Assembly (NCBI GenBank): GCA_951406725.2
Contig: OX597837.1
Coordinates: forward strand, 2,604,001 to 2,668,000
Direction: 5' to 3'
Length of the DNA: 64,000 nt
Source: Octopus vulgaris
Lineage: Eukaryota
Positions 5,899 to 56,753 of this stretch are shown piece by piece. Position numbers and translations under genes: made by a program. Numbering within the stretch: the first letter of the stretch is position 1; each line of letters begins with the position of its first letter. The notes beneath the pieces are model-generated. The model saw only the letters and a program-made list of their open reading frames with translations, made no database searches and was not told where the DNA came from.

Positions 5899-7918
5899 CT
5901 TTTTTTTTTCTTCTTTCAAATTTTATTCCATTTCTTGCCGAGTGTCTTCCCGACTCCTAGGGCAAAGAAACTCATAGTGTATATTGGTAGGCCATTAAAC
6001 CAAACTCAGTAGTTCGTTCATTTTTTTTTTTTTTTTTTTAAAGTTAAATTAAAATACATGAGCAGCAACAGTTCTCACATCGACAATGCTCTTCTCAATA
6101 CGTGTGATGTACCAGTTAAGACAATCTTTTGCACTTCTTGCAGGGATGGTAAGCCAGGGATCATTCTCATATAATTTTCGGTTCCCTTCTTGATCATTCC
6201 TAGTGCTCCTACGATCACTGGTATTGTAACCGCCTTGAGATGCCACATTTTCTCAATTTCAATGAGTAGGTCTTTATATTTTCTGAGCTTGTCAAACTCT
6301 TTCGCTGAGATATTATGATCACAGGGGATACTCATGTCGATCAATAAGCAAACTTTATTGTTTTGGTCTTTCACAACAATATCTGGTTTATTGGCCTTGA
6401 TGGTTCGGTCTGTATGTACTGGAAAGTCCCACAGAATGGTTACATTTTCTCCTTCAGTTACAGCCTCAGGGTGGTGATTATACCACTTGTCGGCAGTTTT
6501 GATATTGTAATGCCGACTTATTAGCCAGTGGAGATATTGGCCAACTCTGTCATGTCTTAATTTATACTCCACTGATGCTAAGACTTTACATCCAGAGATT
6601 AGGTGGTCCACTGTTTCAATCATGTCGTTGCAGAATCGGCATTTTGGGTCTGCTCCATTTTTCATCACATTGGCCTGGTAGTTCCGGGTTAATAGGCTTT
6701 GATCTTGAGCAGCCAGGATGAAACCTTCGCTCTCTGCTTTTAGCCCTGAGCTCCGTAGCCACTGATGGGTTTGCTTCTGGTCAACATCAGCTTGTTTGCT
6801 GCGGGTCACATATTTGCCGTGCAGAGGTTTCTCCTCCCACCTATCAGCCAATTGCTCGTGCGCTTTTTTCATTGCCATCATTTTCACCTTCTTTGCAACA
6901 ATAGTTGCCGTACTTCCCTCGGGTTGTTCAGTTTGGGTATCCTGCACGAGATCAATAGCAAATCTTTTGCTTTCCTTGATGATAGAATGAAGCTTCTTTC
7001 GTCTCTCGTGATTTTCCACGAGCTTTAGCATCCAGCCATTCGATATTTCGAGATATTTGGCCAGTCCAATTGTGGTTGTTTTGTAAGCTAGTTCAAATTG
7101 GATCAGGCCTCGATCTCCTTGGGCTCTGGGAAGGTAAAGGCGATCTACGTCTGCCTTTGGGTGGTGCATCCTATTACAACTCAGCAGCTTGCGTATTTTT
7201 CTATCTATATTCTTTACTTCACTCATATTCCAGTTCAACACATTGTAGCTATAAGTAACAACTGGAACTGCTAAGGAATTTATAGCTAACACCTTGTTAC
7301 GTGCATTTAGTTCAGATTTCAGGACTGCACGAACTCTCCTATAACATTCCTTCCTGATTTTCTCTTTCATGCTTGCATGCTGAATACCAGAGCCTTCATT
7401 TATCCCTAAATATTTGTATGTTTGTTCTTGCTCAAGCTCTCTTATGACTGTGTCAACATCTAACACGACTGAATTTGTGGTCTTCACTTTCCCTTTCTGG
7501 AAAGTGGCCTTGGCACACTTCTCAAGTCCAAACTCCATCCCGATGTCATCGCTGAATGCTTTCACGGTGCGCAATAGGCCTTCAAGTTCATTATTGTCTT
7601 TACCATAAAGTTTTAAGTCATCCATATAAAATAGATGGCTTATTTTTTTATTGGCAATTTTATACCCATACCCTGTTCTGTTTAATTCACTTGTAAGGGG
7701 TATTAGGGCTATGCAGAATATTAAAGGTGAAAGTGAGTCACTTTCCAGTACATACAGACCGAACCATCAAGGCCAATAAACCAGCGAAAGTGAGTCACAG
7801 TTGATGTTTATATTTTCTGAGGCAAGTACTCCATTAGAGTGGTATAATTGGAGATTCGTATTCTACAACGACATATTGTGCTTCAGGAAGTTTGAAATCA
7901 CAGGGGAAATTTTGAATA
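5899..7918 (-). mobile_element. 5'-truncated R4/Dong-clade non-LTR retrotransposon flanked by (ATT)n on both sides
   Basis: RT frame continues upstream of the ORF (IFKISPVISNFLKHNMSL*...DSLSPLIFCIAL..HLFYMDD). The 3' UTR (6074-5899) carries AATAAA and runs into (TAA)n. Confidence 0.9.
6075..7625 (-). CDS. Retrotransposon ORF: RT C-terminal part, CCHC zinc knuckle and restriction-like (PD-D/E-K) endonuclease; partial
   Basis: 516 aa open frame with (Y)MDDLKLY, YKYLG, CRFC-x8-HLISGC, RHD, NKPDIVV..IDMSIP..KLRKYKDL and PVIVGALG, diagnostic of RLE-type LINEs. Confidence 0.9.
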   Translation of the reverse strand: MDDLKLYGKDNNELEGLLRTVKAFSDDIGMEFGLEKCAKATFQKGKVKTTNSVVLDVDTVIRELEQEQTYKYLGINEGSGIQHASMKEKIRKECYRRVRAVLKSELNARNKVLAINSLAVPVVTYSYNVLNWNMSEVKNIDRKIRKLLSCNRMHHPKADVDRLYLPRAQGDRGLIQFELAYKTTTIGLAKYLEISNGWMLKLVENHERRKKLHSIIKESKRFAIDLVQDTQTEQPEGSTATIVAKKVKMMAMKKAHEQLADRWEEKPLHGKYVTRSKQADVDQKQTHQWLRSSGLKAESEGFILAAQDQSLLTRNYQANVMKNGADPKCRFCNDMIETVDHLISGCKVLASVEYKLRHDRVGQYLHWLISRHYNIKTADKWYNHHPEAVTEGENVTILWDFPVHTDRTIKANKPDIVVKDQNNKVCLLIDMSIPCDHNISAKEFDKLRKYKDLLIEIEKMWHLKAVTIPVIVGALGMIKKGTENYMRMIPGLPSLQEVQKIVLTGTSHVLRRALSM

Positions 7919-10357: not shown

Positions 10358-11622
10358 GACAGATATAGAACGACTTTACCTGCCAAGAAAAGAGGGTAGC
10401 CGTGGACTTTAACAACTGGAACTAACAATCAAGATTGCCACAATTGGCCTCTACACCTTACCTGAAAAACTCTGATGACTTGATGATAAAACTTGTCTTA
10501 AAGCACGAAAACAAGAAAGCATCATACTCAGTAACAAAATAGGCAAAGGAATATCTAAGTGAATTCCAAATACTACAAATCCCAGAATTAGATGTGCTGG
10601 AAACAAGCACAGAAAAAGCTAAGCGTATGAAAACCCTGCTAAAACTGCTGCCTTATATATTCTTACTGATAAATGGTAAGAAAAACCTCTCACTGGCAAA
10701 ACCCACAAAGAGAGCTAATAGTGCCGATGTTGACAAAGCCCTTACCTATCAATGGTTAGTGTCTTCTTGCTTAAAAGCAGAAACAGAAGGGTTTATCATA
10801 GTAGTCCAAGATCAATGCCTACCTACCAGAAGCTACCAGGTCAACATATTAAATAACGGCAGTATCCCAACATGTCGTGTATGTCAAGATCAAAATGAAA
10901 CCATTGATCATGTTGTCACCATGTGCAGTCTTCTTGCGCCTATAGAGTATCTCAACAAGCATGGTAGAGCAGAACAGTATATTCACCAGATAATTTGCAA
11001 AAACCTTGACCTGTCCTATGATAAAAATTGGTGGGAACACAAACCACCTCCAGTGCTTGAAAATGGTCACATCTCATTCCTCTGGAACTTCACCATTCAA
11101 ACTGACAGAAAGATAGATGCGAATAGGCCAGATATGAAAGACTTCAGACAAAAATCATGCCTCCTCATTGATATGACTGTCCCAATCGACATAAATGTAT
11201 CAGTCAAGTCCTACCAAAAACTGAGCAAGTGTAAAGATCTTGTAATAGTAATTGGCGAAATGTAGAACCTCAAGACTAAAACAATGCCTGTTGTCATAGG
11301 TACCCTAGGAATGATAACGAAAGGGGCTGATTGATACCTAGTTCAGATACCAGAAAACTCCAAAAAGGCAGAAATTCAAAAGATAGTGCTCATAGGAACT
11401 GCCCAAATCCTACATAAAATACTGTAATCTCAAATTTTAAAACAAACTTATAATTTTCTTGTTTTCTTAAACATTCACTAGAACAATACTATGTACAAAA
11501 CCAAATATATGGCAACCAACATAACACCAGCATGAACTTCTAACTTGTTGTCTCTTGAGGTCTCTGGGTGAGACTTGGAGTCAACTTGTACAAATACAAA
11601 GGAAAAGTCAAACATATGGTGA
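10358..11622 (+). mobile_element. Degraded 3' part of a second R4/Dong-type LINE family ending in (TAA)n
   Basis: DIERLYLPRKEG, LKAETEGFII..QDQCLPTR.YQ, CRVC-x8-HVVTMC, ANRPD..IDMTVP and MPVVIGTLG, with frameshifts and stops. The 3' UTR runs into (AAT)n at about 11625. Confidence 0.85.
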
Positions 11623-23498: not shown

Positions 23499-23541
<43 letters not shown>

Positions 23542-23779
23542 TAAGGGTAGAAATTGATATTTATCAATTAAGACCAGTGGTCTAGCATATTAAAAAAGAA
23601 TCCGAAGATTAAAATATTTATATATACCAATTAAGGACTGAACACGAAAAGTGGACAGTCAACATGCTAGATATAGACGTCAAATCGCCGTTCACCACAA
23701 AAGATTATGTTCTCAGATCAAACTCAACACAAAACCATAGCAATAAACAAGTGAAAAATATACGAAATAAAATAATTAC

Positions 23780-23844
23780 CCATGTACTAACTTAGTTTCA
23801 GCTGTTATTTTCCGCAAGGAAAACTGCAGCCATCATCAGCATGG
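23780..23844 (-). ncRNA. Type I hammerhead ribozyme motif (inverted copy)
   Basis: Exact reverse complement of 23901-23965. Confidence 0.8.
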
Positions 23845-23900
23845 TCCGTTATAAATGTAATTTGCTGGACTAGATGCAAACACGATACCGAAATATCGGA

Positions 23901-23965
23901 CCATGCTGATGATGGCTGCAGTTTTCCTTGCGGAAAATAACAGCTGAAACTAAGTTAGTACATGG
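23901..23965 (+). ncRNA. Type I hammerhead ribozyme motif
   Basis: ccatg-CTGATGA-t-ggctg[cag ttttcc ttgc ggaaaa taa]cagct-GAAA-ctaa g ttag-TA-catgg. Predicted cleavage after GUA at 23960. Confidence 0.85.
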
Positions 23966-24407
23966 GTAATTATTTTATTTCGTATATTTTTCACTTGTTT
24001 ATTGCTATGGTTTTGTGTTGAGTTTGATCTGAGAACATAATCTTTTGTGGTGAACGGCGATTTGACGTCTATATCTAGCATGTTGACTGTCCACTTTTCG
24101 TGTTCAGTCCTTAATTGGTATATATAAATATTTTAATCTTCGGATTCTTTTTTAATATGCTAGACCACTGGTCTTAATTGATAAATATCAATTTCTACCC
24201 TTAATTAATTTTATATAAATAAATATGTTCTCTAACCGATAAATTAACTGCTGCTAATTATTAGCTGCAGGCTAGTTTTCTCGGGTTTCAACGCGCCAAA
24301 GTAAAGGCATTTGAAAGATATATTCAAATGTAATAGGCTGAACTCCATGCACGCGATATTTCGGTATCGTGTTTGCATCTAGTCCAGCAAATTACATTTA
24401 TAACGGA

Positions 24408-24472
24408 CCATGCTGATGATGGCTGCAGTTTTCCTTGCGGAAAATAACAGCTGAAACTAAGTTAGTACATGG
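24408..24472 (+). ncRNA. Type I hammerhead ribozyme motif (tandem copy)
   Basis: Identical to 23901-23965. Predicted cleavage after 24467. Confidence 0.85.
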
Positions 24473-24623
24473 GTAATTATTTTATTTCGTATATTTTTCA
24501 CTTGTTTATTGCTATGGTTTTGTGTTGAGTTTGATCTGAGAACATAATCTTTTGTGGTGAACGGCGATTTGACGTCTATATCTAGCATGTTGACTGTCCA
24601 CTTTTCGTGTTCAGTCCTTAATT

Positions 24624-24687
<64 letters not shown>

Positions 24688-25553
24688 CACGGGGTGCGGG
24701 GAATAAATTGTCGTCTAAGTTATGCAAAAATTAAAATAACACTGACATCAAATTCTAACAAATATATTTACCAAAATTGCATTAAAGTGTTTTAAAATTC
24801 TAAAAGTAAATTTATTCAATAAAATCGCCATTGGCTTCAACCACGACCTCCAGATGACTTTGAAATCTCTTGTAACTCTTCTGGATGGTCTCCTTGTTTA
24901 AGTTAGTGAATGCTACCATAATCCTTCAGTTCATCTTTGGGGTTACAAGGAGTTTTGTTGGTCTCTCGTTCAATAGCACCCCACACATAATAATCAAGGA
25001 GGTTGCTGTCTGGAGAGTTAGGTGGCCAGATGTTAGGAGTGATGTGGTCGCAGAAATTATCTGACAGCCATGACTAGGTTCTCCTTCTTGTGTGGCATGG
25101 TGCAGAGTCCTCTTGCCAGACATATAGCCTTCCAGCAGACATCCTCTTGACCTAGGGCAGCACTCCTCCAGGCACTTGATGTAGGCCTCCATGTTGAGTC
25201 TGAGACCGTGAAGGAAGATGAATGGAGGCATAACACCACCATCAATGGGGATCACTCCAAACACCATGATGTTGGCTGGATGTTTGATTTTTATCACTCT
25301 CGGTACATGTCCTAAGATTGACACCCAAACACTCTGAAATATTCGTATTGGAGCTTCCGGTGCGAATGCCAAGCAGTGAAGCATCTTTTTTTCAAATTTC
25401 TGGAAAAGTGAATTGTGTAATGGTGCTGTTCTTCTCACAAACGGTACCCAACTGACCCTACTATACTGTGTAGTCGACAAAATGAAAAACAAACAATGCA
25501 CATGCGCGAAATTAAAAATATAAAATGGTGACAATTTACCCAAATGCACCTTG
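24688..25553 (-). mobile_element. Deleted Tc1/mariner transposon (maT/DD37D-like)
   Basis: Imperfect TIRs (..GGTGC....TAAATTGTC) with TA flanks. Transposase remnants KHPANIMVFGVI..GGVMPPFIF..GLRLN.EAYIKCL and WPPNSPD.NLLDYYVWG. Confidence 0.8.
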
Positions 25554-56425: not shown

Positions 56426-56468
<43 letters not shown>

Positions 56469-56470
<2 letters not shown>

Positions 56471-56753
56471 AATTAAGGACTGAACACGAAAAAGAGGACA
56501 GTCAACATGCTAGATATAGACGTCAAATCGCCATTCTCCACAAAGATTATGTTCTCAAATAAAATAAAATTCAGCACGACCCAAAGCAATAGATAAGACA
56601 AAAGAAATATACGAAATGGAATAATCACCTGTGTACCGAACGGTTTCAGTTATTAATATCACAAGGATATCTGTAACTTCGTCAGCACAGTTTGTTATGA
56701 AAATAATTTGGTGTACTAGATGAAAAACGATACCGGATTCTCGTATGCAAAAA

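Follow-up and report, generated by a model that had tools for sequence, protein, structure and literature searches.

How does a repeat that encodes no protein come to lie in a microsatellite as one inverted and one partly tandem copy, with a hammerhead-like motif at each passage from unit to unit? The question is raised by a locus at 23528-24633 of the window, by which we mean the whole 64,000-nt stretch of Octopus vulgaris DNA analysed here and in which all positions are counted. We consider it reasonably probable that the locus is a young insertion of a protein-free retrozyme with a predicted hammerhead, pasted into (TA)n by a Penelope-like element (PLE) of the Neptune type acting in trans, with two primers on one RNA and with a circle as the template for multi-unit arms.

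Layout of the locus

The initial annotation had described an inverted copy followed by a partial tandem, with three identical type I hammerheads, (TA)n on both flanks and no ORF, and mapping of the arms bears this out. The hammerhead copies at 23780-23844 (minus), 23901-23965 and 24408-24472 have the same letters across 65 nt, and their GUA ends fall at 23785 (minus) and at 23960 and 24467 (plus), so that the plus-strand sites do lie 507 nt apart as claimed. The identity of all three copies is limited to this core, and the middle motif is 5'-truncated at 23897, without the upstream sequence that the other two motifs have. The element is built of two arms, one on the minus strand (23528-23898) and one on the plus strand (23897-24633), which overlap by a 2-nt CG, with (TA)n outside both; its longest Met-initiated frame is 44 aa, its GC content is 33.5%, and having no RT or GIY-YIG ORF it is not an autonomous PLE. 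The unit is numbered q1-507 from the predicted cut site, corresponding to 23961-24467, and the features are as follows.

23504-23533, no strand: left (TA)n target tract, terminating a longer TA/TG microsatellite region
23528-23898, minus: tailed arm (B arm), q394-507 plus q1-257, terminating at site B within the TA tract
23780-23844, minus: hammerhead motif 1, predicted cut after 23785
23897-23898, no strand: head-to-head arm junction with 2 nt of microhomology, CG
23897-24633, plus: short-ended arm (A arm), q444-507 plus one full unit plus q1-166, terminating at site A and spanning two hammerhead junctions
23901-23965, plus: hammerhead motif 2, predicted cut after 23960; context 5'-truncated, motif masked by the inverted arm in the predicted read-through fold
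23961-24467, plus: 507-nt unit q1-507, cut site to cut site, no ORF, fold z-score -7.0
24006-24035, plus: first-lap stop zone q46-75, within the predicted long helix 23982-24039 / 24224-24323
24119-24126, plus: site A, TATATATA (q159-166), putative priming site of the short end
24127-24217, plus: 91-nt tail, terminating at site B (TATATA, q252-257), the putative second priming site
24408-24472, plus: hammerhead motif 3, complete context, predicted cut after 24467
24626-24687, no strand: right (TA)n target tract

The A arm carries q167-443, which is missing from the partial units flanking that arm at this locus, so its template crossed two hammerhead junctions and was either a circle or an uncut multimer. 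In the predicted fold of a read-through plus-strand RNA of the locus, the middle motif is paired with the inverted arm over its full length (65 of 65 bases), which argues against the earlier proposal that such an RNA releases a 507-mer: with this motif masked, the locus would be a poor producer, giving long double-stranded RNA instead of the 507-mer unless transcription initiates at the junction. Longer arrays are likelier candidates for 507-mer producers than the present locus.

Some further features of the window were noted. The motif TGACGTC at 24063-24069 is present in most sister copies and recurs in the 3' region of an autonomous PLE; a promoter role is our guess from its resemblance to the CRE motif. 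A broken transposase-like remnant at ~24690-25400 adjoins the right TA tract, and from motifs in its translation we take it to be Tc1/mariner. Open frames of 563 aa (6078-7766, minus) and 240 aa (10543-11262, plus) also occur, the former with YMDD and presumably a LINE reverse transcriptase by resemblance.

The hammerhead motif and its conservation

The motif consists, in order, of CCAUG, CUGAUGA, a 33-nt stem II region, GAAA, CUAAGUUAG, UA and CAUGG, with the core elements CUGANGA, GAAA and UH in the right order and one additional nucleotide after A9. A descriptor scan returned four matches in the window, compared with a mean of 0.05 in 100 block-shuffled windows, the fourth being a diverged relative at 56685 on the minus strand. 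The Rfam check proposed in the initial annotation matched no hammerhead model, either at the gathering score or among the 22 matches up to E 10, and the long stem II would explain the missing match.

Conservation was assessed in 15 variants taken from the 507-nt family and an older sister family, across which the core is retained, with letters unchanged apart from N7. Of 216 helix cells 95.4% are paired, compared with 24-40% in slid controls, and two-sided changes number 30 against 11.1 in shuffles and are present in all three helices, with stem I open; counted by pair, 6 of 15 pairs have a two-sided change, which is not above shuffles (111/500), and the sequences are related. Core and helices have been retained through subfamilies that are 75-90% diverged. 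The core and three helices thus support the motif as a type I hammerhead, for which self-cleavage is predicted. The fourth hammerhead belongs to an older one-armed relative at 56456-56749 (minus), 74-84% identical and lying between TA tracts; it has compensatory changes in stems I, II and III, and its stem III is mismatched at the centre.

A young family with two fixed ends

The genome searched comprises 2.8 Gb in 227 contigs. With the unit as query 1638 candidates were obtained, and the 38 of these that were scored are mostly 99-100% identical and frequently arrays. Exact patterns, whose counts are lower bounds, occur genome-wide at least 701 times for site A/(TA)n junctions, at least 352 times for site B and at least 363 times for hammerheads, with 0 for each reversed control. 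The locus is one among several hundred young, dispersed copies of a 507-nt protein-free repeat, and the young non-autonomous PLE/retrozyme family that had been proposed is upheld by copy number, near-identity, the tail with its inverted/tandem footprint and motif covariation.

A set of 137 distinct insertions was parsed (138 rows, L042 and L161 being one), comprising for the A end the first 30 matches and 28 more chosen among the first 100 listed, together with the first 30 B-end matches, the 39 loci with the first 100 hammerheads, and top-scoring arrays. Two arms are present in 111 of the 137 and one arm in 26. When a short arm is defined as terminating at site A (q159-166) and a tailed arm at site B (q252-257), both ends can be classified in 105 two-armed insertions, and 103 of these are A+B, with one AA and one BB; a further six have one atypical end. 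The 3' ends are therefore fixed, one per arm, a single event accounts for both the inverted copy and the partial tandem, as its two arms, and the stretch of 91 nt from one site to the other corresponds to a PLE tail. Long inverted repeats are described as troubling assemblies (Craig et al., 2021, 10.1101/2021.04.23.441226), and a fold-back assembly artefact had been named in the initial annotation as a danger to its reading; given 111 two-armed loci with differing junctions and a fixed end asymmetry, and unmirrored flanks at the present locus, such an artefact is refuted at the level of the family and its probability is negligible.

The target is (TA)n: the end patterns include a TA run, hence one end is selected by the search, and the opposite ends are also (TA)n in most loci. 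Consecutive tandem units with a hammerhead each are found at the present locus and in arrays, where arms cross up to 7 junctions, and donor-capable arrays reach 10 or so units. That short copies form an older class was considered and rejected, the median divergence being 1.3% in short and long copies alike (p 0.77). A larger and older sister family (L183-L212), 72-87% identical and with one tail motif matched exactly 1070 times, has kept the tail and two-end layout with a different stem II, and its unit in L190 is 534 nt.

A probable single RNA template for both arms

Both arms of one insertion share one haplotype, which points to one RNA template. Among 78 of the 103 A+B insertions, those with an overlap of at least 60 nt, arm divergence is 0.8% within and 2.7% between insertions, and an arm's own partner is closest or tied in 62 of the 78. 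Sites that depart from the majority are common to both arms in 229 of 361 cases, and a private variant occurs in both arms at only 7 of 88 two-armed loci. Passage of the hammerhead is likewise coupled: in 64 end-selected A+B insertions both arms pass it in 12, neither in 43 and one in 9 (p 2e-6).

Priming may alternatively have occurred once, the cDNA folding back and copying itself into the inverted arm, with arrays growing later by unequal exchange; such self-priming has been suggested as the source of inverted repeats in PLEs (Arkhipova et al., 2013, PMC3846280). The 5' ends of the arms do often coincide at palindromes or hairpins, both lying within 10 nt in 21 of 43 short two-armed copies against 9.4 by permutation, and unit variants common to adjacent or alternating units are found in L266, L267 and L277. 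However, self-priming leaves the other fixed end of the second arm unexplained whichever arm is longer (A in 30 A+B insertions, B in 73), and some arms hold sequence missing from the 5' end of their partner, as at the present locus, where one arm has q394-443 and the other begins at q444. We regard self-priming as improbable, and two primers on one RNA as quite probable.

Variants present in some units only, often neighbouring ones, are found in 13 of 39 arrays, so that tandems were not all copied from one circle, and tandem arrays by themselves prove no circle; such variants point to later duplication or mixed donors. One seven-unit arm (L266, G000:C6:92351700-92358000) has a variant in units 2, 4 and 6, as a later two-unit duplication or a two-unit template would leave. 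Fixed RNA edits were rejected as a source of private all-unit variants, none of eight being A>G.

Where the arms stop

In lap 1, 46 of the 101 arms that reach q75 halt in q46-75 (1.91 versus 0.30 stops per 100 nt), a zone chosen from the lap-1 histogram of the same data. A and B arms both halt mainly there despite starts 91 nt apart, and the zone falls within a long helix predicted between q22-79 and q264-363. In lap 2 only 5 of 35 arms stop in q46-75 (p 0.001), and in all later laps together 5 of 61. A barrier confined to the first lap is expected on a circle, because after one lap the template is in hybrid and endless, so first-lap-only stops favour a circular template. Higher processivity of the enzymes that pass the zone, or all-or-none cleavage, could mimic the lap effect. 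On these grounds a circle is the fairly probable template for long arms.

The observations have also to be held against PLE twin priming on long uncut linear array transcripts, with short copies arising from cut or short RNAs, no circle involved and the hammerhead weak or incidental. Arrays with as many as about 10 units are available as donors, the 13 of 39 arrays in which only some units carry a variant are compatible with a mixed donor, and unprocessed RNA is described as the main substrate of a PLE in vitro (Frangieh et al., 2024, PMC11167929). In a linear multimer, however, every unit would be folded or cut alike, so the stop should recur in each unit, and it is absent after lap 1; moreover, core and helices have been maintained in the diverged subfamilies. 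Transcripts of this linear kind are a rather unlikely alternative to the circular template.

At q1-15, beside the predicted cut, arm 5' ends are not enriched (p 0.13-0.46), so that the genomic data carry no direct sign of cleavage; a pile-up in this position failed once ends were refined and selection for full-length matches was removed.

Predicted folding of monomer, dimer and circle

The folds given here are nearest-neighbour predictions in which tertiary contacts are ignored. According to the initial annotation, stem III is too tight for a monomeric fold and the two tandem motifs may cleave as a dimer. The dimer stands as a prediction and the reason given for it does not, as stem III can be drawn in a single motif with 3 bp and a 5-nt loop or with 4 bp and a 3-nt loop (-18.1/-18.9 kcal/mol). 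A rival fold in which the core CUGAU pairs with GUUAG reaches -21.0 and is favoured by 2-3 kcal/mol over the stem III fold; stem III would thus lose in the monomer because of this pairing and not through too tight a helix. For the two-motif stretch 23893-24490 a double hammerhead at -171.6 is the unconstrained minimum, compared with -166.7 for two single folds, and its probability is 0.63 at the present locus and 0.27 in a full-context array. In the monomer circle the predicted probability is 0.78 for a blocked core and 0.02 for stem III, and 15 of 16 variants have a stem III whose self-complementarity extends to its centre.

A switch in which the double hammerhead cuts multimers and the blocked core spares the monomer circle is, on these folds, slightly favoured. 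Dimeric hammerheads are described as permitting cleavage in multimers and avoiding it in monomer circles (PMC4209133), hammerhead motifs of mussel and coral as cleaving in monomeric form (Cervera and de la Pena, 2020, PMC7229834), and predicted dimers of frog retrozymes as cleaved in 1 of 9 cases (Li, Clavereau and Pollet, 2026, 10.64898/2026.07.22.740005).

A search for the 24467>23961 junction, or divergent RT-PCR alone, had been suggested as a test for circles. The circle junction has the sequence of the uncut motif, so the joined sequence is genomic, arrays yield the same product, and a junction search cannot decide for a circle. In three of four runs guessed to be RNA, assembled contigs bridge the third hammerhead with at least 31 letters on each side, a result in which strand, circle, uncut RNA and DNA carry-over are indistinguishable. 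Sequencing runs listed as containing the stretch come from 7 studies under 4 organism labels and include none of RNA, a listing that carries no information about expression.

Proposed mechanism

By the folding predictions, two neighbouring motifs of a multimer would form a double hammerhead and excise exactly one unit, while the lone motif of the monomer circle would fold into the blocked form and leave the circle intact. A PLE endonuclease would then cut both strands of (TA)n, and both 3' ends would serve as primers for the reverse transcription of a single RNA, one starting at the UA-rich site A and the other at site B, which lies 91 nt 3' of it, after which the two cDNAs would be joined head to head through microhomology. 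Most events would halt at q46-75 in lap 1, at the long helix or where a cut linear monomer ends; those passing the zone would continue round the circle to give multi-unit arms, and some arrays would afterwards expand or homogenise locally.

A bolder reading takes the family for a two-state-switch retrozyme whose copies record rolling-circle, two-primer reverse transcription of one RNA circle by a sequence-unrelated Penelope-type enzyme that recognises only the 91-nt tail between the UA sites. We hold this tentatively and find it rather doubtful as a whole; if it were true, stops confined to lap 1 would show directly, from the genome, that circles serve as templates.

The family adds genomic evidence on mechanism. 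Copying of animal retrozymes from RNA circles by PLE enzymes has been put forward as a hypothesis from co-occurrence and homology (Cervera and de la Pena, 2020; Li, Clavereau and Pollet, 2026), and the copying mechanism is described as still to be worked out (Li, Clavereau and Pollet, 2026). A young and numerous family lets the insertions themselves reveal the primed sites, the one RNA for both arms and the barrier in lap 1 only. For in vitro work it offers a defined substrate of 507 nt, a simple target and a candidate family of enzymes of which young copies are intact; it also bears on why Penelope insertions have single-end tails.

Relation to known systems

By the sequence and layout features tested, the family fits the metazoan non-LTR retrozymes, apart from the size range of 2020, and it behaves as PLE cargo. 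Criteria for a non-LTR retrozyme are given as GC below 45-50%, no protein and a highly self-paired unit (Cervera and de la Pena, 2020; Li, Clavereau and Pollet, 2026). As described in the same reports, metazoan retrozymes likewise have tandem non-coding units with one type I hammerhead each, low GC, strong self-pairing and autonomous PLEs alongside. The 507-nt unit exceeds the 170-400 nt reported first (Cervera and de la Pena, 2020) and falls within the later 51-972 bp (Li, Clavereau and Pollet, 2026). The family differs from them in its long stem II with an internal loop, in being inserted as two back-to-back arms with fixed ends, and in being known here from DNA; in its monomer circle the core is predicted to be self-blocked, whereas most metazoan circles are predicted to be free to fold (Cervera and de la Pena, 2020). 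In open-licence literature, neither a retrozyme from a cephalopod nor a two-end rule for retrozymes was found.

With the EN+ PLEs Neptune and Naiad, as described, the family shares partial tandems, an inverted 5'-truncated copy, a single-end tail and (TA)n targets (Craig et al., 2021; Arkhipova et al., 2013). Unlike them it has no RT/GIY-YIG ORF and no sequence in common with the PLE loci checked, and its tail is 91 nt, compared with the 30-40 nt described for PLEs (Craig et al., 2021; Arkhipova et al., 2013). Two internal start sites that define a tail have also been reported in vitro for the Poseidon element PAc of Anolis, whose protein cuts and extends both target strands and for which the hammerhead was dispensable as tested (Frangieh et al., 2024). 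PAc, however, is described as starting in an AC-rich stem-loop non-homologous to the target, without strand preference between the sites (Frangieh et al., 2024), whereas the sites of the 507-nt family are UA runs like the target, with one site per arm.

The dimer-dependent newt and axolotl satellites and the minimal hammerheads of PLEs have, as here, a self-complementary stem III that can pair between neighbours (Cervera and de la Pena, 2020; PMC4209133). In the accounts given there 1-2 bp are possible in the monomer and the obstacle is too short a helix, compared with 3-4 bp here and a predicted block by mispairing of core with stem III. Non-autonomous Chlamys elements such as MRC1 are described as having 3' sequence in common with a known autonomous partner (Craig et al., 2021); the 507-nt family differs in possessing a hammerhead, and in having no partner among the 87 checked of 148 listed GIY-YIG matches.

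Autonomous PLEs and the search for a partner

Mobilisation of the 507-nt family by a PLE is in our view very probable, the enzyme class being read from the insertion footprint rather than from homology. The genome contains several PLE families that end in (TA)n and have a Neptune-type linker, one of them very young. In a young autonomous RT+GIY-YIG element, all four two-armed copies (among 29 loci) pair a short end with a 40-nt-tailed end in (TA)n. BLAST and a tail profile revealed nothing in common with the unit in 87 of the 148 listed GIY-YIG matches (best E 0.15); with 6136 candidates in total the partner search is incomplete.

It may also be asked whether the copies are mere truncated pLTRs of an autonomous PLE, without an RNA of their own. 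Homology between retrozymes and pLTRs is reported in frogs (Li, Clavereau and Pollet, 2026), and at L213 (7630-7052, minus) a tailed end of the sister family is fused directly to the first of the frames of a PLE whose RT frame (785 aa) is intact. This single case may reflect a template switch or a nested insertion, and the PLE concerned has a 3' end and a hammerhead different from those of the 507-nt family. By tblastn, 120 family loci (overlapping loci included) hold no PLE coding sequence except one 35% fragment, and units adjoin units with no ORF between. The pLTR explanation is thus largely refuted and highly improbable, and a family with its own RNA, mobilised by a PLE in trans, is the reading that we retain.

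At the 3' ends of the PLE loci L074, L092 and L213, hammerhead-like motifs with a U3-A8 core swap and a short palindromic stem III lie 110-170 nt from the end. The very young (TA)n-targeting PLE (L094, G000:C6:133343000-133351000, and L091-L110) has two overlapping frames, one of 479 aa without a Pfam match followed by RT+GIY-YIG, 781 aa from stop to stop and giving a 765-aa protein in L094, with a CxxxxCxxC linker; its terminal repeat returned 1062 candidates, the top copies being 100% identical. Canonical PLEs are described as single-ORF in papers on EN+ PLEs. A loose contig end upstream of q378 was considered as a partner and rejected as an unrelated repeat, with no unit sequence in the 12 loci examined. 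This repeat (L141-L152) is itself dispersed in TA tracts, often as inverted or tandem pairs, with 449 matches to a 30-mer at no more than 2 mismatches.
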